Shown in pieces: positions 25,231 through 57,217 of a stretch of DNA of 64,000 nucleotides. The stretch's first letter is position 1, and each line of letters opens with the position of its first letter. The notes beneath the pieces were generated by a model, which did not search any database, was not told where the DNA came from, and was given only the letters and a program-made list of their open reading frames with translations. Position numbers and translations under genes: made by a program. The stretch lies in the sequence record PQ511146.1; one strand, written 5' to 3'. The stretch comes from Escherichia phage NHEP1.

Positions 25231-25256
25231 ATAGAAAATCCCCGCCGAAGCGGGGT
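25231..25256 (-). terminator. rho-independent terminator (CCCCGC-UUCG-GCGGGG + U-run)
   Basis: 6-bp GC stem with UUCG loop followed by AUUUUCUAUUU on minus strand. Confidence 0.55.
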
Positions 25257-25268
25257 GTGTCTTAGAAA

Positions 25269-25649
25269 TTAATCGTAGTGTGCCAAAATCTCTCCATCGT
25301 TGCAAGTCCCCTCTACGAAGTTGTGAAGATTCATGCATTCATCTTGATAGAAGAATTTACCGCTTTTCAGCCGTAGACCAAACAACTCCGCATCTCCACG
25401 ATGGCAAGCCTCTACAAGTTCATAGATTTCATACGGTAACTCTCCATCGTCATGGAAGAACCCCGCTTTATCGTTGACATAGATGAAGAAATAGTCACTG
25501 CTGTCGCAAGCGTCCAGTATTTTAAACCAGATTTCATCCACATCTTTTTCTCGGATATCGATCACACAAGTGGAGCTGCATTCGTACTCCTTCTCCGGCT
25601 CCTCGGTCAATACCACCAAGTAGTTTCCCCGCTTACCTACTTTAGCCAT
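25269..25649 (-). CDS. hypothetical protein (126 aa)
   Basis: ATG start; operon context. Confidence 0.6.
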   Translation of the reverse strand: MAKVGKRGNYLVVLTEEPEKEYECSSTCVIDIREKDVDEIWFKILDACDSSDYFFIYVNDKAGFFHDDGELPYEIYELVEACHRGDAELFGLRLKSGKFFYQDECMNLHNFVEGTCNDGEILAHYD

Positions 25650-25658
25650 ACAACCTCC

Positions 25659-26843
25659 TCAAGCTTTAGCTAAAATGGCGCTAAACTCTTCACCAAACTC
25701 TTTTACAATCTTCATCAGGTTTGGGTATGCTTTGATCAGCTGAGCGACGATCTTGTCCCTGCCTTTACCAATAAGTAAGGCATTTCCTAAGGCGTTAGGT
25801 TTCATCATCGCCATAAAGACTGAGAATACAAAGTCTCGGTTCTCATCCTTGAAATTTTCCCAAAGGAAATCAAGGAAGTTTGCCACACAGCTGACAAGAT
25901 CTTCGTCGGAGATACTTGCATTTTCCATCATATTACGAATAGCGATACAACCTTCTGACCCCAGAATCCACAAGATGTCTGGCTGCTTAGGACCTACATA
26001 TTCTTTGCAGCCTCCTGCCATAATCCGACCGATTTCTGGCAAGTTTCGTTTCTTGGTGTGGTAGGTCCAAATTTCTACCGCTGCAGTGTGACCAATTGCA
26101 CCTTGTAGAAGGACACGGGCCATAGCGTCAGAAATAATACCGCTGTCAAAATCGTGCAGGATGTCAGATGCAGCAACCCAAGATCGCGGTGTGGCAAAAG
26201 ATGGACAATTAATCTCAGCCATGGCCTCATAATTATCAATGGCTGATGGGACTCTTTTCAGATATCCAATTACAGAGGAGTGCACCCCATTAAGGAATGC
26301 ATAGTCCTCAATAAACACCTCTGCACTGCTTGTAACTTCTACAATGATAAAGCGGTTAGCTAGAGGAGCTTCGAGCGCCGAAAGAACAGCACCGTCTGTA
26401 GCACGGTTACCTGCAGCTACAAAAACAGAGCCCTTAGGAAATGCATAGGTGCCGCACTTGTGGTCGAGCATAATTTGCATTGCAACCTTCTGCAGGTAGT
26501 TATCTGCATGAGTAAGCTCGTCTAGAAAGATAATTCCGCTCCAGTCCGGATCTGCAGGCCAAAATTCTGGAATTGCAAACACTGTACGTGTAGTCCCATC
26601 CGACTCTACAGGGATAGGTAGCCCAGATAAGTCAGCAGGGTCTTTATCTGACAGTCGCACGTCAACAAGGTTGTCATCTCGCTCACCGAACATATTATCA
26701 GCGATCTGCTTCATCACCTGACTTTTACCCACACCCATTGGTCCCAAAATTAGGACAGATCGGCTATGACGTTGGGCAAACTGAATAATGGCTGGCAACT
26801 CACGGACAGTGATTTGACCACTTTCGAATACGTTTCTTGACAT
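25659..26843 (-). CDS. MoxR-like AAA+ ATPase
   Basis: Walker A GPMGVGKS, Walker B IFLDELTHAD, sensor AAGNRATD; 394 aa. Confidence 0.8.
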   Translation of the reverse strand: MSRNVFESGQITVRELPAIIQFAQRHSRSVLILGPMGVGKSQVMKQIADNMFGERDDNLVDVRLSDKDPADLSGLPIPVESDGTTRTVFAIPEFWPADPDWSGIIFLDELTHADNYLQKVAMQIMLDHKCGTYAFPKGSVFVAAGNRATDGAVLSALEAPLANRFIIVEVTSSAEVFIEDYAFLNGVHSSVIGYLKRVPSAIDNYEAMAEINCPSFATPRSWVAASDILHDFDSGIISDAMARVLLQGAIGHTAAVEIWTYHTKKRNLPEIGRIMAGGCKEYVGPKQPDILWILGSEGCIAIRNMMENASISDEDLVSCVANFLDFLWENFKDENRDFVFSVFMAMMKPNALGNALLIGKGRDKIVAQLIKAYPNLMKIVKEFGEEFSAILAKA

Positions 26844-27112
26844 TAGTAAAAGTCCTCTACTTGTGTGTAAGTGTTTTCAAAGTTTTCCAAAACAGATGTC
26901 ACATCGGATCTGTCAATATCGTACACAACTTCCCAGTTGTATGCAACCCTTTCTGCTGTTGCTTCTTCGGGACTTAACCGCCTACTGGGGTGAAAGAATG
27001 TTGGAGTGCACTTTCTTAGCTGTTTCCCGATTTTCCCATAACAATACCTGTGGATAATTTTGTCAAAATTTAACTCTTTTTCTGCACAAAGTTCATGTTT
27101 CTGGTATAGCAT
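26843..27112 (-). CDS. hypothetical protein (89 aa)
   Basis: ATG after AAAAGAG; track GTG at 27145. Confidence 0.5.
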   Translation of the reverse strand: MLYQKHELCAEKELNFDKIIHRYCYGKIGKQLRKCTPTFFHPSRRLSPEEATAERVAYNWEVVYDIDRSDVTSVLENFENTYTQVEDFY

Positions 27113-27151
27113 GTTTATTACTCTTTTAAGTGGCCTCCTTGCCACTACCTG

Positions 27152-27532: not shown

Positions 27533-27534
27533 TA

Positions 27535-27792
27535 TCAGTCTACCTCTTCTTCCCGTTGCAGCTCAAGATACCCATAGGTCTGGATATCTTCAAGGGTGTG
27601 AAACTCCCCGTCAGCAGCCAAGGCGCGAACAACTTGGCGCAAAACTTTATGAGGGACTTCATCCAGCCCTAGATTCAGTGCAGGAAACACCTTATCTAAG
27701 TCAACAAAATAAACGAACTGTAGTTCACCAGCTTCAAAAGGTGTATCTTCAATAAACATCTTCTCGGCATTGGTCAAGATCTGCACTTTCAT
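27535..27792 (-). CDS. hypothetical protein (85 aa)
   Basis: tightly packed, 1-nt overlap. Confidence 0.55.
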   Translation of the reverse strand: MKVQILTNAEKMFIEDTPFEAGELQFVYFVDLDKVFPALNLGLDEVPHKVLRQVVRALAADGEFHTLEDIQTYGYLELQREEEVD

Positions 27793-28148: not shown

Positions 28149-28160
28149 TGATAGGCCTCC

Positions 28161-29404: not shown

Positions 29405-29417
29405 CACGTTTTTCAGG

Positions 29418-30471: not shown

Positions 30472-30488
30472 AGGGGCCATTGGCCCCT
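30472..30488 (+). promoter_or_regulatory. intergenic hairpin GGGGCC-ATT-GGCCCC (possible attenuator)
   Basis: near-copy of the bidirectional terminator stem at 36187 but without a clean U-run. Confidence 0.3.
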
Positions 30489-31976: not shown

Positions 31977-32234
31977 ATGGCAACAGAGGTAGTAATTAAA
32001 GCTGAACGCCCAGTTAAAAAAGCTATCAACACGTTCCCTGTAGGAACCATTGTGAGCATGATTACAGAGTCAGGCCGTGTATCTACACTGCTAATCGTGA
32101 AATCTGCATGCTCATCTTGTGTGTGGGCATACGATCTTGACGAGAAAGAACTGAAAGATTTTGTCGGGGAGCTGAAAGCAACAGAGCTTGACGCTCGTAT
32201 CGAAGTATTTGGTGAAACTATGAAGGAAGAGTAA
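31977..32234 (+). CDS. hypothetical protein (85 aa)
   Basis: second ATG, 9 nt after GAGAGG; first ATG at 31968 abuts the SD. Confidence 0.5.
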   Translation: MATEVVIKAERPVKKAINTFPVGTIVSMITESGRVSTLLIVKSACSSCVWAYDLDEKELKDFVGELKATELDARIEVFGETMKEE

Positions 32235-34984: not shown

Positions 34985-35014
34985 AGTATGGCTTTCGAGA
35001 TGGAGACTGACTAA

Positions 35015-35398
35015 ATGTGCAAGTGTAAATCTTATAATTGGAAAGTGAAAGGTGCCAAGCATCCAAATGTTATCGTTGATGTGCCTAAAAAGCTCCGTGA
35101 CGGCAAAAAACGTGTGTGCCTTGATAAGTGCATGGCTAAACCTATCATGAGCCTATGGGCGGCAGGATTGAAGACCTTAAACTGCTGCTGTGGTCATAAC
35201 AAACGCCCACCAAGCATTATCATACCGGAGAATGCAGATCCTAAAGCATATGCCAAGATACTGACCCGCTACTACAGCACCTTCTTGATTGGAAAATGGT
35301 GCCACGATGAACTCCAGTGGTGGATAGCGTATGGCGGTCTTGGTGCTGCTTTAGGTTTCCCAGCTTTATCAGATAAATCTGTCAAGGTATCGTCGTAA
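35015..35398 (+). CDS. Cys-rich hypothetical protein (127 aa)
   Basis: ATG 8 nt after GGAGA; CxCx...CLDKC...CCCGH. Confidence 0.5.
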   Translation: MCKCKSYNWKVKGAKHPNVIVDVPKKLRDGKKRVCLDKCMAKPIMSLWAAGLKTLNCCCGHNKRPPSIIIPENADPKAYAKILTRYYSTFLIGKWCHDELQWWIAYGGLGAALGFPALSDKSVKVSS

Positions 35399-36176: not shown

Positions 36177-36210
36177 TAAAAAGAAAGGGGCCATTTGGCC
36201 CCTTTTTTAT
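36177..36210. terminator. bidirectional rho-independent terminator (GGGGCC-AUUU-GGCCCC flanked by A-run and U-run)
   Basis: lies between the convergent plus module (ends 36173) and minus structural operon (ends 36221). Confidence 0.7.
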
Positions 36211-36220: not shown

Positions 36221-39200
36221 TTAAAGAGAGAAAGTCGCGTAGGCTCCCAGACGATACTGCTGATCACCAGGGAACATAACACCTATAGAGGCTGTCCCTA
36301 GAATCCTGCCTTCCTTTCCAGACTCCATTCTGAACCCTACCCATCCGGAACTCCTTGCAGCCTCGATGTTGTCGCTATACCCAAAAGTGGCAAGCTCGTC
36401 AACACCAGCTCCAAACAGCAACTGAAGCTGACTTCTCGGAAGCCCTATAATTTCAGGAATATATGCACCAAAGTACACCATCTGCCCTACCTTAGGACCG
36501 CTGCCGTACTCCATCGGCTTGCTTGTAGAGAAAGTCTTCATACCAGAAGTCCCTGCCGGATTAGGGTATGCCCCGTTTGTTGCTGTGCCTATCCACATTC
36601 TCCACTGAGGTGCCATCTGTCTGACAGTGAAAGATGTTGAAGACGTTTTGCGGCCTGCATCATCCGTAACTACAAACTTTATAGTGACATTACCAGGGGC
36701 TTTAAATGTTACCAATCCTGTGGTAGCATCCACTGTTGCAATGTTAGTATTACTACTTTCCCAAGTCTTTCTAATCCCTGGCACATTGGAAGGGGTAATA
36801 GAAGGTTCCTGCATCTGCAGTTTACCGCCCACAATCCCTATGCCGTTACCTGGATTATACAACGCACCAACTTCATCTACAATGTTACCTGCCTTGAGGC
36901 TGTACTTTTTAGAGAAGTTGTAAGTGCCGTTATATGCGTGTGTCCCTGAGAAGGTTACATCTGCCTTGCCGTTGGAGATGCAAACCAAAGCATACTTCCT
37001 GTCAGGCAACTGTGCCCCAGTTTCTGGGTGAGTTTTACCCACCTGGAACACGCTCGGGTCAGTAGAGTCGTGGCTATCACTAACAGAGCTTGGACCACCC
37101 ATCAACTGTGACAAGCAATTCCTTACCCATGTCCAGTTATTGTCACTGGAGAAGTCTACAGTCAAATCAAACACAACCCACTCATTTGGCTTCCACACAG
37201 GTGTTGTGATCAACTTACCAACACCCCCACCCTGAAGAGTAGGAGATTGTTCAGTGATCAGGGCAGAGTATGCCAGAGTGCCCAACTGCATAGTCTGGCT
37301 TGCTGTCCTCACTACCTTAGAATCAGCATCTGTGAAGTTGTTGATGATCTGGAATGTGCCATAAGTGTTTTTACAGGTAATTCTGGCGTTCAGTGTGTCA
37401 ATCTTCCTCACATCTGCCATAGCAGTGTTAGACACAGAGAAGTCAGAAGCTTTAGCTGAGTTTGCTGCAACAGCCGGATCAACGTTGAGGGTTGCGTTGA
37501 ACTGGCAGGCAGGAGTAACCAGCAGCTTGTTATCACCTATTTGCTTCCATGAAACACTTTGAACAGGGAGATTCCATTTAATACCTGAGAAAACTTTAGC
37601 AACCCTTGGTCCCAGAGCTCCCGTCCTGTTGTCTTTACAGCACATGGACATAGTGATCGTTGACGGGGTGGCCTGACCAAACAATTGTTGTGCTTTTGCA
37701 GAGGACATGGTGTAGAAATTGTCCTTAACAAACTCATCAGCCGCTAACGATCCGTCAGATCTCCACCATTGCACCTGGTACCCAGTCTTATCCCAGCCAC
37801 CGACCTGCTTTAAGTCCTCCCAAGAGATTTCCAAATCTCCGGTGGTAGGGTTAATTGCCGCAGTTCCTGGTGTTCCAGATGACCATATTGGGATATCGAA
37901 CCACGCTGGTTTAACAGACTGCACTGCGTTAGGTCCTATTGCAGCAGCAAGTTGTTGACCCATCAATACGCGAGCATCTTTCACCAGACCCCACTCAATC
38001 ATAGACCCAGAGTAACCCTCTTTCTTATATGCGGATGACCCATTCAAGTGAATAAGTCTACTTGTGCCGAAGTTATGTGCTCCACCGCCGTTGTCGTCTG
38101 CAAAATTGGTTATGATTCTATCCCTGATGTTTTTCCATGCCCTGCCCCCAATCTCGTAGTCATGGTCATAACATCTTTGCAGCGTTGTCCAGCAAATGAT
38201 CGCCATCCTTCTGCCGTTACTGAAGCCAAAAGCCTGATCGTTAAGCTCTCTCCACAAATAGCAGTTAGTGGTCCACATAGCTCTGTGAATGTTGAACCAG
38301 TTTATAGACTTGGCTGAGTTATCCCACTGAGTCCCAGGTAATTCAGGCCACACTGCATTAACCAGCATGTCTTCTGTTCCTGCATCAACCAAGAACCCTC
38401 TTACCTTTTTACCCATGCCTACCCTGTCTTTTGCAATCCAACTGCCAAACAATCTCAGTTTTGGACCGTAAACAACATCTTCCGGATGCTCAAAAGAGAC
38501 ATACTTCAGATATACTGTAGGGTCACCATAGGTGCCATCACAAACAGCTTTGTGCATGTTCTCGCCAAGGTCTAGACGAAGTCCTGTTACAACTTTTGAC
38601 GTGTCGGTGAATTTGTCTGTTAAATCAAATTCATACCACCACCAACCTGCACCCAACAATACCTTCTTACAACGCTGCGCATCTGTATCAGATATTCTCT
38701 TATCTCCTGAAAAAGGTGAGTCAGCAAACTGATAGTGCAGAGCAATTTCAAAAGGATGTGTGGAGGTCCCGTTTTCTGCAAGGACTTGTTTACCTATTAA
38801 GTCACACTTAATAATCATCACAACACGTTTGTACCCATTTGTTACTGGGATCTGCATAGACATAGATGTCCCGTCCATGTTTGATCTCAGCGCAGTCATG
38901 ATGATATAAGGATCAACGGCATTACCAAGAGTTTCAGGCCCTGGAATTATCTTATACTTCTTAACCTGCCCCATGATGTAATCACTGGCGTAAGTTGCAG
39001 CCTCGAAGCAAGATCCCCCGTTAGGCAGTTCCCCTGGCCCCCAGAAAAATGCGCCATAACAGTTATAAAACCACTTGTTAGGGTCGTATTTGTTCTTGAA
39101 GGTCTGAACCTCGTTGGCCTGTTTTGTCAAGAAAACCTGCGTATCTGTAAAGATTGCAGGGTTTACTCTTGACTGTCGATTAGCATACCCGGTTTGGTTA

Positions 39201-41854
39201 AACCATTGATTGCAAGAGTAATCCCTCATATAATCGTAATCAGAGTATTTGTTTGCATCCTCGTTCCAACACATGTTGAGGTTGGTGCCGCCCATGCATA
39301 CAATATATTCTTCAACGTATTTATCACTTCGAGTGGGAATTCCTATGAACCATCTGTTAACAGGCTCGTCCCAAGCGGTACGTTCATCTTTAACGCAGAT
39401 TGCAATCCAGTCATGTGTCCCTGTTTTCTTGCACACATCCCGTTTCATACCGTAGTAGAATTCTTTGGTATTTGGCTCAGGTGCGCTTATCAGGTAGCTC
39501 CACGCTTGGTCTGCATAGGTTCCGTCAGTGCGTGGGTCGTGATCAAAGGCGTACATGATGATCCTTTCCCCGCCAAGATGTTCACCAAGAGTAACTTTGA
39601 TGTTCACATCTCCGTAACCGTTGCGAACAACATCCATATTGTCAATAGAGATGCCTCTAGGGGTGTAGGCAATTTTCAGTGAGTTATCCTCACTGGTGCC
39701 CCCAAGTGTAATCCCTATGTTGTTTGTTGTCCCGTCGGCATATCTTACTGTGGCTTCCCAGCGTATTCCGAAATATCCTGCATCATGGCTGACAATTTTC
39801 AGTGTACGAGCACCTGGGTGAGGTTTTCCAGGATCAGGCCAAGGGTCTGGGTGTTCGTGGACAGTCAACGACGTTCCGTTTTGCTCGTTAACCTGCAACA
39901 TTTTACCACCTCTGCCGTTAGGGTTGAACTCCCATACGGCCTGTGTCTGCACTAAGTTGTTGTAGGTATTTCGTCTCTGATCATAAATCTCTTGGGTAAC
40001 ATCATAAGTGACTGATCCAGCATCCATTCTGTGGAGTCGGACCATATACGATGTATCTCCTTCTACCGCAGGCTGAGTCCCATTCAGCCCGAAGTATACA
40101 GTGTCATTAACATGGAACTGTTTGTTTCTACCGACAGTATGCCACTTACCGTCAGAAGGATACGCAGGAACTATGGTGTTCCAGTTCAAGGTCCTTGTCG
40201 TGTGCGTTCTGCCTGTGCCATGCTTGTCATGATAGGTTATTTTTACAGAGTACAGGCCACGTCTGTTCACATTCCTGTTATACTGAGTAACAACAACTTC
40301 GTTGGCCCCGCCGTGGTTCCAGTTGGTGGAGAATTGGTAATTTGCATCTGTAACAACCGTACCTGCAGCATTTACCAGTTCAATCTTGTCAATAATGAAC
40401 GTAGCTCCCTCTGGCTGAGGCTTCAATTTCATCTTGACCGTGTCACCAATGTAGATATTGCTAACGCTGCTAACACCGTTAACGTCAAAAATATCATCAA
40501 CACCCCAACTATCTACTGGGACATTTTTATACCAATTCTCAGGAACCTCTGTGAACCCTTGACTATTAAGTCTGCCACCAAACAGGTTATTAGAACCTGC
40601 AAAACTTCCCCTTGGGATGCCTGACCACCAAAGTTTACCATTAACAACAGTAAAGGTCCCTAAGAAACCTTCTCTGTGAATGCCTTGGAAATAAACACTC
40701 TCTGTCCAGCTAACTGGGAGGCGTTGCTCAACGTATTTAGCCGTAGCAAGGGCCTGGTAATGAACAAAATCGGCACGGGGGTTATTGTTTGCAGATTGTG
40801 CGCCAATATCGTTGCACAGGTTTCGAGAGAAGCCACGATACTGCTTAGTACCATTGTTGAAGAAAATGCCACTTGTGCCGTACCCACGAGCCATTATCAC
40901 CTCATGGGTGTAGGTTATATTCAAAGCACGCCAGGCATCATCCCCCCAAACGTTTTGACCATAAAATACGTTAACAAGTTGTTGGTCATCAGGTCTGTGC
41001 ATTCTTTGTGTTGCAACCACTGCCCCGTTCGGACCACACATGAATCCTTTCCACTCCTCATCTGCAGGAATGCCTTTCAAATCGTTGCGAGTAATCTGAG
41101 CAGGGGGCCAAACAAGGTCGTTTCTACTGTTGTTTCTCAGAAAGTCGTATCCAGCAATCCAAAAACCTCTAGGCCCACCGAAAATAACAGAGTTGTCATG
41201 CACCTCGCAGTTGATACTTGGGTTTTTCCAAGGGCCTGTTTCAGGATTTTCTGATGTTTCACCAATCTTTACAGGAGTTGCATGCTGGTTCTTATCTACA
41301 TGTAAAGATCCGTAGGTGTTGTTACCAGACCCGTACAGGTGTAAAATGCCGTCACCCTCAGCCTCTGCCATAACCCAAACAGTGTTGTTAATACCACCCA
41401 TTACCTCGATAAGGCGCTCTGGGTGGGTGTCAAGGTGCAATCCTTGAACAATCTGTTCCGGAAGAGGTGTCCACTCGTTTACGCAAACATCGTTACCACC
41501 TGCCGCAGTGGATCCGATAAGACCTGCAGTGCAACCGATGTAGAAAAACTGGTTATCAAAAGTCCGGATCACAAACGCACGGTCTGCTCTCCACACATGA
41601 TCAACATTCCAGGCCGTCTCGCTCGGGTAGTTTATAGGGTTACGATCCCCAGTGCGACACTCCCCGAACTTGTTATAGCCAGTAATATTAAGCTGACCGT
41701 CGTCAAAAAGTATAGCTAAGCTATTTACATAAGCTACTGTAGTGCTTGTACCGTCACTGTTGTCTATTGGGTATGACAGAACAGCAAGTTCCTTAACTCC
41801 ACCCCTCTTATCGAGGAAATGACGACCAAGTTTTAGCAAAGGGATTGGAAGCAT
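36221..41854 (-). CDS. giant tail fibre / adhesin-like structural protein (1877 aa)
   Basis: ATG 6 nt after GGAG; Big_2-like Ig segment near C-terminus; RCC1-like glycine-rich repeats near N-terminus; last gene of structural operon. Confidence 0.7.
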   Translation of the reverse strand: MLPIPLLKLGRHFLDKRGGVKELAVLSYPIDNSDGTSTTVAYVNSLAILFDDGQLNITGYNKFGECRTGDRNPINYPSETAWNVDHVWRADRAFVIRTFDNQFFYIGCTAGLIGSTAAGGNDVCVNEWTPLPEQIVQGLHLDTHPERLIEVMGGINNTVWVMAEAEGDGILHLYGSGNNTYGSLHVDKNQHATPVKIGETSENPETGPWKNPSINCEVHDNSVIFGGPRGFWIAGYDFLRNNSRNDLVWPPAQITRNDLKGIPADEEWKGFMCGPNGAVVATQRMHRPDDQQLVNVFYGQNVWGDDAWRALNITYTHEVIMARGYGTSGIFFNNGTKQYRGFSRNLCNDIGAQSANNNPRADFVHYQALATAKYVEQRLPVSWTESVYFQGIHREGFLGTFTVVNGKLWWSGIPRGSFAGSNNLFGGRLNSQGFTEVPENWYKNVPVDSWGVDDIFDVNGVSSVSNIYIGDTVKMKLKPQPEGATFIIDKIELVNAAGTVVTDANYQFSTNWNHGGANEVVVTQYNRNVNRRGLYSVKITYHDKHGTGRTHTTRTLNWNTIVPAYPSDGKWHTVGRNKQFHVNDTVYFGLNGTQPAVEGDTSYMVRLHRMDAGSVTYDVTQEIYDQRRNTYNNLVQTQAVWEFNPNGRGGKMLQVNEQNGTSLTVHEHPDPWPDPGKPHPGARTLKIVSHDAGYFGIRWEATVRYADGTTNNIGITLGGTSEDNSLKIAYTPRGISIDNMDVVRNGYGDVNIKVTLGEHLGGERIIMYAFDHDPRTDGTYADQAWSYLISAPEPNTKEFYYGMKRDVCKKTGTHDWIAICVKDERTAWDEPVNRWFIGIPTRSDKYVEEYIVCMGGTNLNMCWNEDANKYSDYDYMRDYSCNQWFNQTGYANRQSRVNPAIFTDTQVFLTKQANEVQTFKNKYDPNKWFYNCYGAFFWGPGELPNGGSCFEAATYASDYIMGQVKKYKIIPGPETLGNAVDPYIIMTALRSNMDGTSMSMQIPVTNGYKRVVMIIKCDLIGKQVLAENGTSTHPFEIALHYQFADSPFSGDKRISDTDAQRCKKVLLGAGWWWYEFDLTDKFTDTSKVVTGLRLDLGENMHKAVCDGTYGDPTVYLKYVSFEHPEDVVYGPKLRLFGSWIAKDRVGMGKKVRGFLVDAGTEDMLVNAVWPELPGTQWDNSAKSINWFNIHRAMWTTNCYLWRELNDQAFGFSNGRRMAIICWTTLQRCYDHDYEIGGRAWKNIRDRIITNFADDNGGGAHNFGTSRLIHLNGSSAYKKEGYSGSMIEWGLVKDARVLMGQQLAAAIGPNAVQSVKPAWFDIPIWSSGTPGTAAINPTTGDLEISWEDLKQVGGWDKTGYQVQWWRSDGSLAADEFVKDNFYTMSSAKAQQLFGQATPSTITMSMCCKDNRTGALGPRVAKVFSGIKWNLPVQSVSWKQIGDNKLLVTPACQFNATLNVDPAVAANSAKASDFSVSNTAMADVRKIDTLNARITCKNTYGTFQIINNFTDADSKVVRTASQTMQLGTLAYSALITEQSPTLQGGGVGKLITTPVWKPNEWVVFDLTVDFSSDNNWTWVRNCLSQLMGGPSSVSDSHDSTDPSVFQVGKTHPETGAQLPDRKYALVCISNGKADVTFSGTHAYNGTYNFSKKYSLKAGNIVDEVGALYNPGNGIGIVGGKLQMQEPSITPSNVPGIRKTWESSNTNIATVDATTGLVTFKAPGNVTIKFVVTDDAGRKTSSTSFTVRQMAPQWRMWIGTATNGAYPNPAGTSGMKTFSTSKPMEYGSGPKVGQMVYFGAYIPEIIGLPRSQLQLLFGAGVDELATFGYSDNIEAARSSGWVGFRMESGKEGRILGTASIGVMFPGDQQYRLGAYATFSL

Positions 41855-49815: not shown

Positions 49816-51306
49816 TTAAATAGTTTGTTGGAAAGTTATATTACTTTCGTCGAGGTCAAACACCTCGGTCATGTTTGCAACAATATCGTTTGTAGTGTAA
49901 GCTTCGTCAGAGGCTCCTACAGGTTTAACTTGAATTACCAATCTGTTAAATCTGCCTATCGACACAGCAGCGGATGCAGCACCTACCAATTGGATATTGT
50001 ACAACGTATCGGCGACATCCAAGCCGTTAACAACCTGTAAAAGAGCCTCTACAATGGCATCTTTTTCGGTTGTGGAAAGCGCAGCACCTGAGTAGGTAAT
50101 TCTTACATCTAGGCGGTAGGTATTTGCCTTGGAGTAATAAATCCTTTCAGTCTGACCGTCTGATGTGGTAATATCGTAGAAGATATTCCCATAAGTTCTG
50201 TTTGTGCAAGCTATGGTTTGATACAGTGCCTGACAGATATCCTCTGTTGCACCACCAAACACCACCACTTGAAACTTATAAGGTGGTATACCTTTCGCAT
50301 CCGTTTTATCGGTGTTGTTGGAGAACACTCTTACTTTCTCAACACCTTTCACCTCGCTTACAGCGCTAAGGATTGCAGGACGGGTAGCTTTAGATGTCAG
50401 CTGTTTAGTGCTGGAAGCTCTTAAGCGATACTCAGAGTCTTTCTCAACATCCCTACCCTCATTGAATCTTTCTCGGTTGGTAAGCTTGATAAATCCACTG
50501 GGAGTAGGTGACATTGTTGTCACGGTTTCTGCCTCTCTTGACAGCTCACCAGCCTCGTTAGCGATAACATCTAGGGTGATAGTTCTTTCCCCTACAATCG
50601 GGGATACTCTGAAATCTACCCTGCTATTAAGTCCAACTTGATCAAGATTCGAATTGTACCCTATCCACAACGTCCCTGTCAACATATCTATCTGAATTAG
50701 ATCATCATTCAGCAGGGTTGTATTATCGACAATGAATTGCTTAATCTCGCCGTAAAAGCTTGGCAAATCAGAAGAGTCCAGAGCCTTATCTGTTAAAACC
50801 AGACTTTTTGTTTTGATACTTCCGTCTGTCTGGTTGGTAATTTGAAAGTTGTATTTCCCAATTCTTAGGTCTGGAGCGTTTATTCTGTGAGCAATAAGAT
50901 TTCCCGCCACCTGCACATCGTTGCTAAGAACAAAGTTGCCACTGTCCAGCGTATAAGTTTTGGAATCATAAATCATATTGTACGGCACAGTTGTGTTGAT
51001 TGTCAACTGGCAGGTACCTGATGATTTAGAACGGCCTCTTCGGTAAATACCCTGTCTTCCAAGAAGCTCATCCAGGTAAATACCTTCTGCCCCATATAGC
51101 GTCTGTGATGCGTATACAGATGCTGCCATAAGAATAAGTTGATATTCTCGCTCGTTGAAAATAGTGGTCAGCTTATCTGCAACTGAGTTACTTTGTACGT
51201 TGAAGTTTTCGCCAAAAGCACGGATCAGGCTTTGCTTAGTTTCAACGATTAGGTCATTTAGGGTTGGTATAACGAAACCAGCCTCTGTCAATCCATACTT
51301 AGCCAC
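49816..51306 (-). CDS. structural protein, possibly baseplate J-like (496 aa)
   Basis: GTG 4 nt after GGAGGAG; first gene after internal promoter; tentative family call. Confidence 0.5.
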   Translation of the reverse strand: MAKYGLTEAGFVIPTLNDLIVETKQSLIRAFGENFNVQSNSVADKLTTIFNEREYQLILMAASVYASQTLYGAEGIYLDELLGRQGIYRRGRSKSSGTCQLTINTTVPYNMIYDSKTYTLDSGNFVLSNDVQVAGNLIAHRINAPDLRIGKYNFQITNQTDGSIKTKSLVLTDKALDSSDLPSFYGEIKQFIVDNTTLLNDDLIQIDMLTGTLWIGYNSNLDQVGLNSRVDFRVSPIVGERTITLDVIANEAGELSREAETVTTMSPTPSGFIKLTNRERFNEGRDVEKDSEYRLRASSTKQLTSKATRPAILSAVSEVKGVEKVRVFSNNTDKTDAKGIPPYKFQVVVFGGATEDICQALYQTIACTNRTYGNIFYDITTSDGQTERIYYSKANTYRLDVRITYSGAALSTTEKDAIVEALLQVVNGLDVADTLYNIQLVGAASAAVSIGRFNRLVIQVKPVGASDEAYTTNDIVANMTEVFDLDESNITFQQTI

Positions 51307-51339: not shown

Positions 51340-51368
51340 ATTTTACCAAATTTTGTAACAATAGTCAA
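51340..51368 (-). promoter_or_regulatory. sigma70-like promoter (TTGACT-17-TAAAAT) inside the structural module
   Basis: hexamers between terminator 51376..51404 and gene start 51306. Confidence 0.55.
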
Positions 51369-51375: not shown

Positions 51376-51404
51376 ATAAAAATAAACCCCGCCGAAGCGG
51401 GGCT
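51376..51404 (-). terminator. rho-independent terminator (CCCCGC-UUCG-GCGGGG + U-run)
   Basis: same hairpin as at 25240 and 57198; follows the J-like gene. Confidence 0.6.
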
Positions 51405-51411
51405 TTAAAGG

Positions 51412-54400
51412 TTAGTCGTGAGACTCGTTCCAAGGTCCCTGGAAGCTTGAGTTAGAACGACTAACGATCACAGTGGGACAGGAGATTGTGACACCTGTCA
51501 CGCTAGACGTTGACCACGGTGTGTAAATCTCGATAACAATGTCTATAGTTTGTTCACCCAGACCTGTTATCCCTACCGCACACATGCCGTTGTTGTCGTT
51601 AAAATACTTCTTGCCAGCAAGGATCTGATGACCAGCTATCCATGCATTCAGCTGGGAGCTGGCAAGAGTACCATTCAGTTTAAAGAAGAATGTTACGTTC
51701 TTACCCTGACCTGAAACGTTATCTACGTATCTCCACCTCCAACGGCAAACCCTTTGCCGGGAGTTGTATACTGGAGCACAATCTCCGTAAGTCCTGTGTG
51801 CAACAATCGCACCTTCGAACTGGTTAGCACGGATAACGGAAGCTTCTACACGTCCACGGAATGTACCTCCTGTTGCATCTATGGTTCCTCTAAAGCTACC
51901 GTTGTTGGCATAAACATCCCCACGGAAGGTGCCACTGGTAGCGTTAACTGCCCCTGTGAAGTTACCTGCACTAGCGTTGATGTTACCTTTCACCCACACA
52001 TCCATAAACTGGGCGTGCCCGTTCTTGTTAATATACCAACCGTATTTGTGGTACCCGTTGCCATCGTAGTTGTTTGACGAAATTTCTTGCGCGATCTTGG
52101 CAGAAGAGATCGTGCCGTTCTCTATAAAAGCGTCTTTCAAGAACGCTTGGTTGTTCTTGATTGCGAAAGCAAGGGTTGCTGTTCCATTGCCTGGGTTGTA
52201 TACCGCAAAGTTGTTTGCGCTAACCATGAAATATGACTGAACTTGGCCTCCAGAGCCTTCCATGCCTAACTGGATACCTGCCACATACTTATTCCCTGCG
52301 GAGTCTACCTGTATTTTTGTGCCCCATTGAGCATTTACTTTGCCCTCTAAGTCGGTCACAGCCTTAGATGTTGTAGCCACTGCAGCTCTGAGTTCGGTCA
52401 CATCTCCAACATCATCAATAATCTCCTGCTTAGCAACAGCAAGTTCTTGACGAATAGCTGACGCTGTGCCATTAATAAGGTCAACAGTAGACTTATTAGT
52501 TTCAGAAATATTCGCAGACAATTCTTTCTTAGTCTGAGTCAGCTTATTATCCAACCCGTTAATGTTATTGGTGTTGGTTGTAATCTGCCCTTTAGCAGTG
52601 GTTAACTGCTCAGTCAAAGCTGCCGTTTTCTGATTCAATAGGTCAGTTGTGGCCTTGTTGGTGGTAGAAATCAACGTATTAAGATCAGACTTGGCGGTGT
52701 TTATCTTACCATCAAGCGTGGTGTAGTTTTTGGACACTGTGGCGTTGGTCTGGCTAATCTTCTGGTCAAGAGTCTCAGAAGTTCTGTTCAGCAAGTCCAC
52801 AGTGGCCTGGTTAGTGCTCAGAATGCTCGCATCCAACTCAGATCTTTGAGTATTCAACTTGCCCTCTAGGCTCTTATCACCAGCCAGATAGCCTTTTTCA
52901 ACATCTCCGATCTGCTCAGTCAACTCTCCCTGTGCAGCAACCAGTTTTTCATCCAACGCCTCTGTTTTCTTATTAAGAAGATCAGTGGTGGATTTGTTGG
53001 TTGACTCAATCAAGGATGATAGTTTAGCACTCTCATTTTGCAGGTTGTTGGTCAACTCACCTTTCGTTGCTGTCAGCTTGTTATCTAAAGCCTCAGTTTT
53101 CCGATTAAGGAGATCTGTAGTCGTTTTATTGGTTGAAACAATTAGAGAGTTCAGCTCAGAGCTTTCCTGTGCCAAAGCATCTTCCAATTCACCCCTTGTT
53201 GAAACAATCTTCTCGTCCAAAGCTTCAGTTTTCTGATTTAACAGATCGGTTGTAGCTTTGTTAGTGGTCTGTATTAGAGAAGTCAGCTTACCACTTTCTT
53301 TAGAAAGATCATCTGCAAACTTGTTCTGAGTGGCTACCAGTTTCTGGTCTAGAGTGGTAAGCGTTCCATTAACGTCCTGGAAGTTGTCGTGGGTTTCTTG
53401 GATGAATATTCCAACCCTATTCCCCAACTGAGCATACAGCTTGTCTACTCTAGAGAACTCACCTTCCATGTGGTCAAAAGCCTCGTCAACTCTACCATCC
53501 ATGTACCTGTTAAGTTCTGTGACACGATTTTCAACCTCTTCAATAGAGGAATCTAAAGTGCTCATCAACTCTTTATAAGTTTCTGTCTTTTTAAATTCAG
53601 CATCTATCTGAGGCATCAAATCTTCAATAGAGGTGTAGCAGCGTGCAGCGCATTCTATAAACTGAGAACTACCAAAAGCGTTTGTGGTTCGAATATACCA
53701 ATAATAGATCTTATCGTTCTGCAGACCTTCAGATGTCCAAGTTGAACCAACACCCATACGAGTGGCTTTTGAAGTAACGGTTGCATCACTTGTGTCTGGC
53801 AACCTTGTCATACCAGATGTCCAAAAGTCATACTGGGTGCTTACACTTGCTAAGTCCCTGCTGTGCGGAATCAAGGTGATAGCAAAGTATCCCTGCTTAA
53901 CTTCTACAGAAACCGGAGCTTCAGGTGCCTGAATGTTAAACTCGCAGTACGCTTCTGGAGATACACCACCTTTATAAGATGTTGCAACCACGGTTGCTGT
54001 GTATGACCCTTTGGTCAATCCTTCTACACGGACAAACTGCTCTACTGTTTGTGCTGTCCAAATAATTTCTCCGTTCTTTCTTACCTGCACAATATTTTGA
54101 GCATAAGTTCCAACGTTGTCCCAAGCCAAAACACCATGAGTTACTTCCCCAGCTTGAAGAACAGAGTATCTGAAGTTTTGCGGTTGAGCTACGCCGGACG
54201 GGGATATCGGAATATCCACATCGCCAGAATCCGGAAGTTGCCCTGTGGCATCATTCCACTCTTTAGCATCTTGACGGAGTTTTACCTTGACACCGCCCTT
54301 TTTGGTGAACTCCCACTCAAGAACCCTCATTTCTTGGCCCACTATACCAATACTTGGAAGGTCCATCGTAACGTAACGCCCAGGCTTAAATTTAAAACCC

Positions 54401-55557
54401 CGCATATTGCAGGTTACTTCAATAATCCTACCAGCTCTGGCACGTCTTAAGAAGATTGCAGAAACACGCTGAGCTTGATAAGGACTGGTAACAAAGCGAT
54501 AATCTATATCGATTATCTTTCTTTCTCCATCCTTCTCTATCCACTCTGGGACAAACACTGATGGAAAATCTGTTTCAGAATATCCTTTAGCCGGACTAGT
54601 GAATCTGCCAGTTATTGTGTTGGATCTTTTGTCGAAGGAGGCTTCAGGATAGATCTTAACCTCACCGCAAACACAGTCCTCACTCAGTGTCATTGTTGCC
54701 GGGCCATAGTATGCACCTACCAGCAGACCATATTTGCCAGCTACATAGCTAAGGTCTGCACCACAAGCTTTCAGCATCTCTGCCATAATGCTTGCTGGTG
54801 CTTCATCCATGTCGAACTCGCCATTAATGGTGTAACGGCGCTCACTGGTTCCGTCCGCGTTTTTTACAGCCTCGTCGCATATGTTGGCAGCTTCCTTGAA
54901 GGACTCCCAGTTGATGGTTTCGTCAGGACATTTAAGGTACGTTCTTAGATAGTCCAGAATCACCAAGGCAGCGTTGTTGGTATACACCTCTTTACTGATA
55001 CGAGGATCATAACATTTTTTACCAACCTTGACGAGTGTAACGTTTGGCAACCCAAAAGGAAACTTGTTAGGGTCAAACTTAAAGCTGGCACGTAGCCAAC
55101 TGATCCCTCTACCTATCATGTCTGGTGACCACGAAGGGCAGTGTGTGCCCATGAAAGGATCAGAGGTTTTCCTGTCGTTATGCAACTCCCACGATACCAA
55201 ATCCCCATACGAGGAAATAGGATTACCGTCGATAAGTATATCTTCTATACCTTCCAAGGGATGATTGGCAAGAACAATAGCACAATGAAGGGTTCTGTCC
55301 CTGTCCTGCTCTAAAAACGCAAGCAATCCAGATGTGCGTGTCTTCCCATATACTACAGAGCAAGGTGCAGCAGAAGATCTGAGAAGTTTTTGTCTATCTT
55401 GTTGACTTCTGTAAGATTTGTTGCCTTCGAAAATCTTATCAAGGGTTCTGGTGGTAACAGTGTTCAGGCTGTCAGCCAGAGCTGCCTTGGATGCGTTCCA
55501 GTCATAGCTCGAAGATCTTGCAGAAGCAACGATGTTATCAATCATTGCAATTGGCAT
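51412..55557 (-). CDS. lambda J-like tail tip / host-specificity protein (1381 aa)
   Basis: segments APEAPVSVEVKQGYFAITLIPH, DFWTS, YYWYIRTTNAFGSSQFIE parallel lambda gpJ as recalled from memory; GGAGG SD; internal coiled-coil repeat array. Confidence 0.65.
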   Translation of the reverse strand: MPIAMIDNIVASARSSSYDWNASKAALADSLNTVTTRTLDKIFEGNKSYRSQQDRQKLLRSSAAPCSVVYGKTRTSGLLAFLEQDRDRTLHCAIVLANHPLEGIEDILIDGNPISSYGDLVSWELHNDRKTSDPFMGTHCPSWSPDMIGRGISWLRASFKFDPNKFPFGLPNVTLVKVGKKCYDPRISKEVYTNNAALVILDYLRTYLKCPDETINWESFKEAANICDEAVKNADGTSERRYTINGEFDMDEAPASIMAEMLKACGADLSYVAGKYGLLVGAYYGPATMTLSEDCVCGEVKIYPEASFDKRSNTITGRFTSPAKGYSETDFPSVFVPEWIEKDGERKIIDIDYRFVTSPYQAQRVSAIFLRRARAGRIIEVTCNMRGFKFKPGRYVTMDLPSIGIVGQEMRVLEWEFTKKGGVKVKLRQDAKEWNDATGQLPDSGDVDIPISPSGVAQPQNFRYSVLQAGEVTHGVLAWDNVGTYAQNIVQVRKNGEIIWTAQTVEQFVRVEGLTKGSYTATVVATSYKGGVSPEAYCEFNIQAPEAPVSVEVKQGYFAITLIPHSRDLASVSTQYDFWTSGMTRLPDTSDATVTSKATRMGVGSTWTSEGLQNDKIYYWYIRTTNAFGSSQFIECAARCYTSIEDLMPQIDAEFKKTETYKELMSTLDSSIEEVENRVTELNRYMDGRVDEAFDHMEGEFSRVDKLYAQLGNRVGIFIQETHDNFQDVNGTLTTLDQKLVATQNKFADDLSKESGKLTSLIQTTNKATTDLLNQKTEALDEKIVSTRGELEDALAQESSELNSLIVSTNKTTTDLLNRKTEALDNKLTATKGELTNNLQNESAKLSSLIESTNKSTTDLLNKKTEALDEKLVAAQGELTEQIGDVEKGYLAGDKSLEGKLNTQRSELDASILSTNQATVDLLNRTSETLDQKISQTNATVSKNYTTLDGKINTAKSDLNTLISTTNKATTDLLNQKTAALTEQLTTAKGQITTNTNNINGLDNKLTQTKKELSANISETNKSTVDLINGTASAIRQELAVAKQEIIDDVGDVTELRAAVATTSKAVTDLEGKVNAQWGTKIQVDSAGNKYVAGIQLGMEGSGGQVQSYFMVSANNFAVYNPGNGTATLAFAIKNNQAFLKDAFIENGTISSAKIAQEISSNNYDGNGYHKYGWYINKNGHAQFMDVWVKGNINASAGNFTGAVNATSGTFRGDVYANNGSFRGTIDATGGTFRGRVEASVIRANQFEGAIVAHRTYGDCAPVYNSRQRVCRWRWRYVDNVSGQGKNVTFFFKLNGTLASSQLNAWIAGHQILAGKKYFNDNNGMCAVGITGLGEQTIDIVIEIYTPWSTSSVTGVTISCPTVIVSRSNSSFQGPWNESHD
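52400..53300 (-). repeat. intragenic tandem repeats encoding about 33-aa coiled-coil units (S.L.SLI..TNK.TTDLLN.KTEALD.KL)
   Basis: at least six repeat units in the translated J-like protein; bounds approximate. Confidence 0.5.
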
Positions 55558-55982
55558 TAATACCTCCAGACATCAACAACGATAGAATCTTTCATGTCGA
55601 ACATAAAGATCCCTTTATCACCTTTCGCCCAAATCTGGTTGTTCCAGAACACACCAGCGGTGAGCCCGTTCAGACCTTCGAAAATAACAATATCACCACG
55701 CTGAACCTGTTTAGGAGTATCCAGTCGAGTCAAAAAGAGATCAAAAATAGTAGGCAGATGTGTGGTTTTGAAACGAAGCATGCACCATCTCTTGCTTTCC
55801 AACTCTGTTTTATACGTTCCTTCAAAGTTAGAAAGAAAATCTGTTCCGTATTGGGCATCAACACACTTAGCCGCAAAAGTGCAGCAATCGTGGAATCCCC
55901 ATTCAAACGGGATGGTGGCTTCTTCGTCAAACACTTTCCACAATCTTTCTTGCCAGTCCACTAAACGAGGGTGTGTGCTCAT
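55557..55982 (-). CDS. tail tip-associated protein (141 aa)
   Basis: ATG 4 nt after GGGAGG (track TTG at 55994); FHDCC segment, peptidase assignment not supportable. Confidence 0.5.
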   Translation of the reverse strand: MSTHPRLVDWQERLWKVFDEEATIPFEWGFHDCCTFAAKCVDAQYGTDFLSNFEGTYKTELESKRWCMLRFKTTHLPTIFDLFLTRLDTPKQVQRGDIVIFEGLNGLTAGVFWNNQIWAKGDKGIFMFDMKDSIVVDVWRY

Positions 55983-56533
55983 TAAACCTCCCAAATGATC
56001 GGGCGGCTTGCCACCTGATCCACATATTTAAAAAATCTGTCATTATCGTTTCTTGAGCTATGGCTCTCCTCTGTGTACCGATAAGGAAAACCTCTTAACC
56101 AGCTGTTGAAGATGGAAGATATGGATATGGACAAAGCACTATTCTCCCCTGTCTGAATAGCCATGTCTGTTATAAGGCCGTCAAACAAGCCATTGGTTGT
56201 AACAGGTAAACCATTCTCCATAGCTGTGATATACAACGTGGCACGACAACCCGAATACTCCGTCTTCAGCAGATCACCTACATACTTGGGATCAAACCCG
56301 TTCAATGTTGCTACCACAGATCCGAAGTTGGTGGCATCTTTCTCAGACACAGCAGTCAATGTTGCTGATCCACCTATCCCTATAAAATGTTGCCCCTCAA
56401 TCACCACAACACCAGTTCCTGAGCACACCCTGACAGTCCCTGTTGGTAGCTCTAGCTTTGCAGCAATTAAGATCTCAACACTATCAAGCTCCAGCTTTTC
56501 AAGAAATAAATTATCTAATGGCGCTCTAATCAT
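55982..56533 (-). CDS. tail tip-associated protein (183 aa)
   Basis: ATG 8 nt after GAGGA (track TTG at 56548). Confidence 0.5.
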   Translation of the reverse strand: MIRAPLDNLFLEKLELDSVEILIAAKLELPTGTVRVCSGTGVVVIEGQHFIGIGGSATLTAVSEKDATNFGSVVATLNGFDPKYVGDLLKTEYSGCRATLYITAMENGLPVTTNGLFDGLITDMAIQTGENSALSISISSIFNSWLRGFPYRYTEESHSSRNDNDRFFKYVDQVASRPIIWEV

Positions 56534-56534
56534 C

Positions 56535-57125
56535 TTAGAAATCCTCAAAGAAGTTGATAACTATATTATCACCTTTTTGCATAGCATCGACTTTTTGCTT
56601 AATTTTATAAATATCTCTGATATGAAACCTACCCTTTGGGGATTGAGTTATTATCTTCATAGTGTCCCCTGCGGCAATAGGTTTTCTAAGTCTTGGAGAT
56701 ATGCTTATAACAGCAGACCCAACACCATCGCTGCGCACTGGAGCTGTTACCACTTTCAATTCATCGTTAACAGATATTTTATCCCCAGCTCTGGCTATGT
56801 CTCTGTTTGGCTCCCATCCGACCGTCTTCAAAAAATCGTCGTTACCAGTAGGCCCAAGGGCGATTGGCTCATTAGCTGTTACTGAGTGACCGTACGTTTT
56901 AATAAGAAAAATGTTCCCATCTTTATACACCTGATCAACAAAGCTCTTAAGCTCTAGCAGTTGTGACTCGCTGATATTGGAAACCGTCAAAGTGCCTTTC
57001 CAGTTAGGTGTGGCATAGGTCACTTTTTGCGTTTTACCTGTAAACGGACTTTTAAACGTAACAATATCTGCCAGCAGCTCCAATCTGATGTCTGGAAGGT
57101 ATCTAGGCCTTTCCCATAAAAACAT
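56535..57125 (-). CDS. tail tip-associated protein (196 aa)
   Basis: ATG 4 nt after GGAGG; first gene after terminator 57187..57217. Confidence 0.55.
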   Translation of the reverse strand: MFLWERPRYLPDIRLELLADIVTFKSPFTGKTQKVTYATPNWKGTLTVSNISESQLLELKSFVDQVYKDGNIFLIKTYGHSVTANEPIALGPTGNDDFLKTVGWEPNRDIARAGDKISVNDELKVVTAPVRSDGVGSAVISISPRLRKPIAAGDTMKIITQSPKGRFHIRDIYKIKQKVDAMQKGDNIVINFFEDF

Positions 57126-57186
57126 TGTGCCTCCAGGTTAAACAATCATGATAGTTATTTTACCAGATTTTGAGTTAATACGCAAT

Positions 57187-57217
57187 ACAAACAAAAAGCC
57201 CCCGCCGAAGCGAGGGC
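57187..57217 (-). terminator. rho-independent terminator (GCCCUCGC-UUCG-GCGGGGGC + U-run)
   Basis: hairpin and UUUUUGUUUG on minus strand after the 1272-aa fibre gene. Confidence 0.6.

Follow-up and report, generated by a model that had tools for sequence, protein, structure and literature searches.

Reused hairpins in Escherichia phage NHEP1: probable intrinsic terminators, alike in part by convergence and in part by copying

The 64,000-nucleotide stretch of Escherichia phage NHEP1 analysed here (record PQ511146.1, hereafter the window) raises the question of why one phage genome should carry several near-identical stem-loops between its genes. The original prediction sorted seven of them into three families, referred to here as A (A1, A2, A3), B (B1, B2) and C (C1, C2), read them as terminators and proposed that their reuse reflected either duplicated regulatory cassettes or recognition by a common factor. 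We suggest, with considerable confidence, that the seven hairpins are intrinsic terminators of the host RNA polymerase (C1 being at most a weak one), and that their resemblance would have two different origins, that is, convergence (A1 versus A2/A3, and C1 versus C2) and copying (A3/A2, and B1 from B2).

The seven hairpins as predicted intrinsic terminators

The window belongs to the genus Vequintavirus (rV5-like Escherichia coli myophages of about 136 kilobases, kb). When a 20-kb piece was compared with phage records, 135 matched, nearly all of them Vequintavirus, and the best match was Escherichia phage S127 BCL3 (97.5% identity), whose whole genome, assembled from three regions, was used as a proxy for the remainder of the genome. 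The genes are densely packed and lie on the minus strand, except for a plus-strand block at about 29.4-36.2 kb. The comparison set comprised ten Vequintavirus genomes, an outgroup, a Henunavirus, a Mydovirus and 36 loci from across the subfamily Vequintavirinae, and the positional orthology of hairpin sites was judged from the flanking proteins. The outgroup consists of uncultivated phages from one metagenome, whose primase-helicase and baseplate-wedge proteins are 64-71% and 79-80% identical, respectively, to those of the window. It was reached by an alignment query; single-protein queries (with the proteins of 496, 865 and 1381 amino acids, aa) returned only close relatives or non-syntenic distant contigs.

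The hairpins, with their neighbouring genes and the Shine-Dalgarno (SD) sequence where it matters, are the following.

A1: 25240..25255, minus strand, predicted terminator hairpin CCCCGC-UUCG-GCGGGG, then AUUUUCUAUUU (25229-25239); between a 126-aa gene (25269..25649) and a cell-wall hydrolase gene (24719..25219), with no promoter after it
A2: 51384..51405, minus strand, predicted terminator hairpin AAGCCCCGC-UUCG-GCGGGGUUU with a U-tract; after the 1381-aa tail-fibre gene (51412..55557)
A3: 57198..57217, minus strand, predicted terminator hairpin GCCCUCGC-UUCG-GCGGGGGC plus UUUUUGUUUG; after the 1272-aa tail-fibre gene (57225..61043)
B1: 6014..6035, minus strand, predicted terminator hairpin GCCCUGCCC-GAAA-GGGUGGGGC plus AUUUUUGUAU; after a 408-aa gene (6051..7277) and before a 138-aa gene (5572..5988)
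B2: 17128..17149, minus strand, the same predicted terminator hairpin as B1, plus UUUUUGCAUU; between a 160-aa gene (17156..17638) and the cytosine methyltransferase, primase-helicase and polymerase genes
C1: 30472..30488, plus strand, intercistronic hairpin A-GGGGCC-AUU-GGCCCC-U; directly before the SD sequence of a DUF2201 metallopeptidase/VWA gene
C2: 36184..36205, both strands, predicted bidirectional terminator AAAGGGGCC-AUUU-GGCCCCUUU; between convergent genes, that is, the end of the plus-strand unit (about 36169) and a 1877-aa Ig-like fibre gene on the minus strand (36221..41854)

The likeness within the families is not the same in all three. Three copies of the A stem-loop had been counted, and two of them are exact, the core CCCCGCTTCGGCGGGG being found on the minus strand at 25240-25255 and 51387-51402; the third copy (57200-57215) reads CCTCGCTTCGGCGGGG, i.e., CCTCGC...GCGGGG, with a mismatch that pairs as G·U, so the true A3 stem, with one U.G pair, spans 57198-57217. 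The B pair is exactly as described, the sequence GCCCTGCCCGAAAGGGTGGGGC being identical at 22/22 positions on the minus strand in B1 (6014-6035) and B2 (17128-17149). The C pair was also found as proposed: C1 (GGGGCC-ATT-GGCCCC, 30473-30487) and C2 (GGGGCC-ATTT-GGCCCC, 36187-36202) have a 6-base-pair (bp) palindromic stem in common, and their loops differ in length. When the complete S127 genome was searched for further copies with mismatches allowed, a check that had been proposed, no additional A, B or C core was found.

The interpretation of these elements as terminators is upheld at six of the seven sites and is doubtful for C1. The hairpins start 5-17 nucleotides (nt) past the stop codon of a same-strand gene, or, in the case of C2, lie between convergent genes, and five to seven U are present in the 8 nt that follow A1, A2, A3, B1, B2 and C2 (on both strands in C2). 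The folding calculation that had been proposed as a check gave GC-rich stem-loops, in the size range of such terminators (stem about 5-14 bp, loop 3-8 nt), of -13.7 to -19.7 kcal/mol (A1 -13.7, A2 -16.5, A3 -16.9, B1 -19.1, B2 -18.8, C1 -14.0, and C2 -19.7 and -17.0, one value per strand); the z-scores against dinucleotide shuffles were -3.2 to -4.9 at six sites (-4.2 for A1 and -4.3 for A3) and -1.8 at C1, the weakest of the seven. Since C1 is followed by UUCU only and has the weakest z-score, its status as a terminator is doubtful, and it is probably a leaky terminator or a decay barrier.

Moreover, pairing is conserved over sequence. The outgroup orthologue of A1, CCCCUC-UUAUA-GAGGGG, carries a compensatory change from G-C to U-A, together with a different loop and no U-tract. 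At the wobble position of A3 a whole compensatory series is observed, with C-G in phage BP9 (where A3 equals the A core exactly), U.G in the window and U-A in S127. In the outgroup, B2 is represented at the same place by CCCUGCCC-GAAA-GGGCGGGG, one of the window's G.U pairs being G-C there; C1 by GGGGGC-UUUG-GCCCCC, also at the same place and with a C-G to G-C flip; and C2 by GGGGGCC-AUUAA-GGCCCCC. The loops drift: in the genome IMG_10279, A2 has UUAG and A3 has UCCG while A1 stays UUCG, and one outgroup member has GGAA in B2. In the window, the loops of A1-A3 (C-UUCG-G) and of B1/B2 (C-GAAA-G) are of the extra-stable C(UUCG)G and GNRA types and occur here in phage intergenic regions, while those of C1 and C2 (AUU and AUUU) are not special tetraloops. 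Such extra-stable hairpins were reportedly first noticed in phage T4 mRNA by Tuerk et al. in 1988.

Most of these hairpins are already catalogued as terminators at orthologous places in rV5, the type phage of the genus. The 20 predicted rho-independent terminators of its genome paper include A1 (t003), C2 (t026/t027, called a bidirectional terminator between genes 26 and 27), A3 (t041), B1 (t213) and B2 (t232) (Kropinski et al. 2013, Virol J 10:76, Table S4; PMC3606486); C1 and A2 are missing from that table, in which UUCG is the commonest loop (5/20). The accessible portions of the same paper contain no remark on the identity of the hairpins, no comparative or covariation analysis and no link with a module indel. 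C2 also has the composition of known bidirectional intrinsic terminators, i.e., a perfect palindromic stem, located between convergent genes, that has an A-tract at one end and a T-tract at the opposite end.

In the mechanism that we propose, a GC-rich stem, capped in families A and B by an extra-stable tetraloop, would fold in the nascent RNA beside the U-tract and lead to transcript release by the host RNA polymerase, presumably in vivo and with no need for additional factors; once kept at the 3' end of the mRNA, the hairpin would probably protect it against 3' exonucleases. C2 would stop transcription in both directions between the convergent units.

The A3 and A2 cassettes and the tail-fibre module

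The likeness of A3 and A2 extends well beyond the hairpin. The two sites can be aligned end to end over about 100 nt, in the order stop codon, hairpin, U-tract, -35 element, spacer, extended -10 element TGGTAAAAT, leader and SD sequence, and their downstream similarity is significant (local alignment of 80-nt flanks, 0/500 shuffles as good). The elements concerned are the following.

A2 cassette promoter: 51340..51368, minus strand, TTGACT-17-(TG)G-TAAAAT, extended -10; precedes the baseplate-wedge gene (49816..51306)
A3 cassette promoter: 57157..57185, minus strand, TTGCGT-17-(TG)G-TAAAAT; precedes a 196-aa gene (56535..57125)
Four-gene module: 51412..57125, minus strand, tail-fibre related (196, 188, 145 and 1381 aa), 5.7 kb; bracketed by the A3 and A2 cassettes

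The promoter list of rV5 names P036 (after A2) and P040 (after A3) as putative late promoters with the motif TggTAaAAtA (PMC3606486), and the core TGnTAAAAT is that of a general late-region promoter type. The 15-mer AAAATNTGGTAAAAT is found at A2 and A3 only in the whole genome; being unique to these two sites, it was rejected as a candidate genome-wide motif.

The gene order is informative in this respect. In the window, the 1272-aa fibre gene is followed by A3, the four genes, A2 and the wedge gene, whereas the outgroup homologue of the 1272-aa fibre gene has just one cassette between it and the wedge gene, the module being absent; the Henunavirus Hena1 and a Mydovirus also have a single cassette and no module genes upstream of it. 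Since all three have one cassette without the module genes, parsimony favours the gain of the module and of the second cassette in the rV5 lineage, as judged from these gene orders. The single outgroup cassette, which carries the exact A core also found at the A2 site, is like A3 in the portion with the U-tract and like A2 in the portion with the -35 element, as would be expected if A3 and A2 both descended from a cassette of the outgroup type. In two distant contigs (L027 and L028), homologues of the 196-aa and 1381-aa genes occur on one strand, with about 1.2 kb between them. When close relatives are compared, identity is only 70-81% in the fibre genes immediately upstream of A2 and A3 and 98-100% in the downstream genes, the break falling at the 5' edge of the hairpin; such a break is expected for variable fibre genes and, by itself, is not special.

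Overall, these comparisons support the idea that A2 and A3 represent a duplicated terminator plus promoter cassette of about 100 nt around a gene-module indel. Regulatory DNA would have been copied during the rearrangement, so as to flank a module gained by the rV5 lineage. The suggestion that the hairpins mark duplicated cassettes is thus sustained for A2/A3 and probably for B1/B2, and is not supported for A1, C1 and C2, which share with their counterparts only the stem-loop and appear to descend in place.

The A2 site itself is conserved across the Vequintavirinae. In nearly every lineage, over a range of 50-100% protein identity, a terminator and an extended -10 promoter (TTGACT or TTGCAA, 17 nt, TGnTAAAAT) precede the baseplate-wedge gene. 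The stem of the hairpin turns over between genera, and UUCG-type loops recur, as shown by the versions found at this site.

Vequintavirus and outgroup: CCCCGC-UUCG-GCGGGG
Henunavirus: CCCGC-UUCG-GCGGG
Mydovirus: CCACCC-UCCG-GGGUGG
L190 and L203: GGGGC-UUCG-GCCCC (in L186 the loop is UUAG)
L213: GGGGC-AUAA-GCCCC
L195-L202: GGGAGCC-UCUG-GCUCCC
L198: GGGACCC-UUCG-GGGUCCC
L204: GAGGCCC-GCAA-GGGCCUU

In an alignment of 11 distinct versions, 97% of the cells pair, a value due in part to the choice of the sequences as hairpins, 6/7 pairs have changed on both sides and the loop-closing C-G pair is invariant. What is meaningful at this site is the constant position and the recurrence of UUCG on unrelated stems.

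Convergence, copying and the alternative explanations

How far can the remaining resemblances be attributed to chance? Dinucleotide shuffles gave 0 in 100 for each of the A, B and C motifs, but they represent the wrong null, because terminators are not random sequence. An empirical null built on 56 strict terminators from 768 kb of unrelated IMG/VR loci held no identical pair, too few for an estimate, and parametric nulls were derived instead: among 20-40 terminators, the expected number of identical pairs is 0.007-0.03 for a 6-bp stem plus loop and 1e-4 to 5e-4 for a 9-bp stem plus loop, and a more generous null based on the rV5 list gives about 0.09 and about 0.012, respectively. The B1/B2 identity lies far beyond chance under the 9-bp nulls, which argues for a copy. 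The A1/A2 identity alone is not compelling, and that of C1/C2, a 6-bp all-GC palindrome, even less so.

The two B sites have very different histories. B2 is ancient, because an orthologous hairpin stands at the same place in the outgroup, where the site keeps the TTGACA-17-TACAAT promoter upstream, the stop codon, the U-tract and the SD sequence; upstream of the primase-helicase gene of the Mydovirus KP12 the annotated genes are tightly packed, with no intergenic gap, and the orthologue is established as far as the 71-80% outgroup only. At the place of B1, the outgroup has a homologue of the 408-aa gene, a short open reading frame (ORF) and a hairpin unrelated to B1, AAGGCCACC-UUCG-GGUGGCCUU, to which a strong TTGACA-17-TATAAT promoter is fused. 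After the 408-aa homologue the outgroup has genes homologous to those at 31977-32231 and 35003-35281 in the plus-strand block of the window, which places B1 at a synteny breakpoint. B1/B2 flanks show a marginal downstream similarity (p=0.014), consisting of the U-tract and SD sequence only. On these sequence comparisons, B1 is probably an exact 22-nt copy of a derived form of B2, a much older hairpin, and would have come to lie at a rearrangement junction. The genes adjoining B1 and B2 have no Pfam match at E<=0.01. The order of the small early genes in general differs between the rV5 genus and the outgroup (window 1-10500 versus L005, L006 and L008 after about 20000).

A further feature of B2 is the promoter that precedes it.

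P231: 17172..17200, minus strand, sigma-70-type promoter TTGACA-17-TACAAT; within the preceding gene, at its 3' end, and 22 nt ahead of B2

P231, listed just upstream of B2 in the rV5 paper (PMC3606486), is conserved in nucleotide sequence in the outgroup though the ORF that hosts it is only about 44% identical in protein. Lying 22 nt upstream of B2, it would give rise to transcripts carrying B2 in their 5' leader, and B2 may play an additional role as a leader attenuator or as a 5' stabiliser of the mRNA of the replication genes. The whole promoter-then-hairpin arrangement (window 17118-17200, minus strand) is conserved in the outgroup. A second case of this arrangement, according to the rV5 lists, is the late promoter P064, directly before terminator t064ABC (S127 record, 30847-30948); both P231/B2 and P064/t064ABC are possible leader attenuators or 5' stabilising hairpins.

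As for A1, C1 and C2, their interpretation as cassette duplicates is not supported by the comparisons, because each has an outgroup orthologue of its own and only the stem-loop is common to the family; each would have arisen where it now stands, out of an ancestral hairpin of its own. There are few ways to build a short, strong, all-GC stem with a UUCG or GNRA loop, and they are used again and again, which would have made A1 resemble A2/A3 and C1 resemble C2. The spread of these hairpins among other viruses is in agreement with this idea. The A core was found in at least 120 stretches of unrelated IMG/VR contigs, and 68 of the 83 inspected copies (82%) are followed by at least five T in 9 nt. 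The B core (20 nt) was found in 24 IMG/VR stretches, nine of them from rV5-like contigs and the others from several unrelated contexts, as would be expected if, among the millions of terminators in viruses, every strong stem with a GAAA loop came up many times.

It might be argued, on the contrary, that all the members of each family are copies by descent, including A1 with A2/A3 and C1 with C2, generated by duplication or by repeated short-patch gene conversion, so that the terminators would be homogenised by recombination. A1 and A2 are indeed exact over 16 nt, where 0.007-0.09 such pairs are expected, A3 becomes the A core itself in BP9, and A2/A3 and B1/B2 do look copied. The A core is also held in repeated cassettes by two unrelated IMG/VR contigs: in L097 (10360-11384, three copies) and L118 (4585 and 4971, reverse strand, two copies), every exact CCCCGC-TTCG-GCGGGG lies inside a repeated intergenic cassette around a small gene, each L118 copy being followed by the same TTGACA-containing block, so such hairpin reuse appears to be widespread. 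However, A1, C1 and C2 predate the resemblance, as the outgroup orthologue of each has a stem variant of its own, and the orthologues of C1 (GGGGGC) and C2 (GGGGGCC) deviate from the window in different ways. Moreover, the flanks of A1, C1 and C2 have no similarity (among local alignments of the 80-nt flanks of all within-family pairs, none is significant except A2/A3 downstream, B1/B2 downstream being marginal), the C1 and C2 loops differ in length, and the loops of one genome do not change in concert. We consider a common descent of all family members improbable.

The other part of the original prediction was that the families are recognition sites of one trans-acting factor (an antiterminator, an RNase or an RNA-binding regulator) that coordinates read-through or processing. 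From this standpoint the 22/22 identity in B is striking, the location of B2 in the leader of a conserved promoter is a typical spot for regulated attenuation, and some records call the gene next to C1 'anti-sigma' or 'anti-termination'. Yet family members have no common sequence beyond the hairpin, save the A2/A3 promoter, and neither the common boxes nor the long duplex nor the RNA family that characterise nut/put-like or RNase III sites were found: RNase III needs about 20 bp or more, well above the 6-9 bp of these stems, and Rfam gave no match at gathering thresholds. Within one genome the loops change without concert (A1/A2/A3 of IMG_10279) and the C loops invert freely; orthologous stems change by compensation, and the same hairpins occur in many unrelated phages lacking these genes. 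For the 'anti-sigma/anti-termination' protein, Pfam gave no match at E<=0.01, and the UUCG tetraloop has been described as protein-non-binding (PMC4371310). The proposal of a common factor is not borne out, and we regard it as extremely improbable. Scarcely better placed is the idea that the palindromes act mainly as DNA (recombination hot spots, protein-binding sites, replication or packaging signals), the RNA hairpin being incidental. It would fit the location of A2, A3 and B1 at mosaic or synteny boundaries, the loop inversions of C1 and C2, which show intrastrand events at DNA palindromes, and the proposal of stem-loops as recombination points in T4-like phages (PMC2839356). Still, the two tandem G.U wobbles of the B stem, owing to which B folds in the minus-strand transcript only, and the one of A3 (in the window and most relatives) make imperfect DNA palindromes, of which only the RNA of the transcribed strand folds well; each of the sites goes with a stop codon and, save for the UUCU of C1, with a coding-strand U-tract; for tail-fibre genes, which are variable, boundaries at the ends of genes would be expected in any case; and the covariation, G.U intermediates included, keeps the RNA pairing.

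We favour, therefore, the reading of the seven hairpins as intrinsic terminators that are alike partly by convergence and partly by copying, although several points weigh against it. C1 has no canonical U-tract, as its UUCU runs into the GGAG of the SD sequence of the next gene, and its z-score is weak. From the likely start of the conserved P231 to B2 there are only about 15 nt, which is odd for a pure terminator. The nulls are rough, being based on 56 and 20 terminators with positions treated as independent, and the A1/A2 identity is somewhat unlikely under the pan-phage one (0.007-0.03), which leaves room for short-patch gene conversion. Lastly, a literature search found no 3'-end mapping or reporter data for any Vequintavirus, and termination is predicted. 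The direction and the mechanism of the copy events are likewise what we infer.

Some additional observations were made on the loci and genomes compared. In C1 and C2, the loops flip between reverse-complement states among close relatives (L001, L015, L016 and L173-L178): the C2 loop is ATTT in the window and S127, AAAT in EmilHeitz, GTTT in slur16, ECP2309 and IMG_10279, and AAAC in naam, BP9, A142 and IMG_173923, GTTT and AAAC differing at 4/4 positions; naam and slur16 belong to the same species; the C1 loop is either ATT or AAT. These flips look like recurrent inversions, possibly by intrastrand template switching at the palindrome; loop inversions of this kind are known from chloroplast hairpins. 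Among the replication genes, the DNA polymerase ORF (10467..14213, minus strand, 1248 aa) corresponds to the 925-aa polymerase of S127 plus an in-frame insert of 324 aa (window 11229-12200), the parts on either side being 99.6% and 97.6% identical to S127; the insert starts with CYSGDTQILTEKGW, ends with ...VAVCGN followed by Cys, has a weak Hint-domain match below the Pfam cut-off and, judging by these traits, is a probable intein. The annotation of the same gene in EmilHeitz joins two pieces, and a homing endonuclease gene lies within the span.

The outgroup lineage comprises four IMG/VR contigs of about 120-140 kb from sample 3300045988 (loci L005, L006, L008, L009, L017-L020 and L181-L184), with 64-80% protein identity to rV5-like phages; since no GenBank phage falls in the 60-80% identity band of the primase-helicase, these contigs may represent an undescribed genus of Vequintavirinae. 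The record of Escherichia phage BP9 (L178, PP488543.1; locus 1-13000) carries lambdoid genes (integrase, exonuclease VIII, IS2 InsA, replication proteins) in place of the Vequintavirus replication genes; it is probably a chimeric assembly, and its hairpin sites alone were used. In the record of Klebsiella phage K23PH08C2 (L179, OY757067.1) the annotation table does not match the proteins encoded at the given coordinates, and only its DNA was used.

Known systems and biological significance

The closest known counterparts of the A3/A2 cassettes are the promoter-early stem-loops (PeSLs) of T4-like phages, composite promoter/stem-loop cassettes whose stem-loops are experimentally effective terminators (Arbiol et al. 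2010, PMC2839356; Comeau et al. 2014, PMC4122927). Where one phage has genes between PeSLs, a relative has a single chimeric cassette in their place, and recombination of PeSLs gives rise to mini-circles (PMC2839356, PMC4122927). The composition of a PeSL unit, i.e., a stop codon, a GC-rich stem-loop (often GGGG...CCCC, with G.U pairs), a sigma-70-like promoter and an SD sequence, is like that of A2 and A3, and the pattern of a flanking pair versus a single unit is that of A3/module/A2 versus the single outgroup cassette, with paired units around genes absent in relatives. In B2 the promoter is upstream of the hairpin, and A1, B1, C1 and C2 have no adjacent promoter. However, PeSLs are numerous, conserved over about 100 bp, equipped with early promoters and located in hyperplastic regions of small ORFans, whereas here only two units are alike beyond the hairpin, with promoters assigned to a putative late, extended -10 class, and it is a structural module of 5.7 kb that these units flank; mini-circles and recombination have been described for PeSLs. 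Since the many copies, the early promoters and the ORFan regions are lacking, we do not file A3/A2 as PeSLs.

Phage morons, in turn, consist of a gene inserted between conserved genes together with its own promoter and terminator. The module at 51412-57125 is similar in that it has its own promoter (in the A3 cassette) and terminator (the A2 hairpin) and lies between conserved fibre and baseplate genes; it differs in having four genes, co-oriented with their neighbours and flanked by homologous cassettes, and this last feature points to homologous rather than illegitimate recombination.

A broader possibility, which we put forward only tentatively and which we hold to be rather less likely than the alternative that it does not apply, is that the terminator-promoter cassettes of the Vequintavirinae act as portable homology linkers, PeSL-like but outside the T4-like phages, by which fibre modules would be inserted, deleted or exchanged. 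The A3/A2 pair would then be the trace that one such event has left and, at the same time, a site still available for changes of host range, and the B hairpin would have reached its new junction in the same way.

As a whole, the elements analysed are ordinary intrinsic terminators, largely catalogued already for rV5, and what is mildly new is the PeSL-like bracketing of a tail-fibre module in the Vequintavirinae, and nothing else. A caution also follows for similar cases: when short GC-rich hairpins with a UUCG or GAAA loop are identical, this alone is evidence neither for a shared regulator nor for duplication, since one such hairpin, of 16 nt, is predicted to terminate transcripts in at least 120 unrelated viral contigs. 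Nevertheless, since duplicated cassettes bracket the module and a second terminator copy lies at a synteny break, the analogy with the PeSLs of T4-like phages suggests that regulatory cassettes mark, and perhaps mediate, the exchange of modules. The rV5-like phages are biocontrol candidates against E. coli O157, and a cassette-mediated exchange, if true, would bear on the evolution of their host range and on the choice of cut sites for engineering them.

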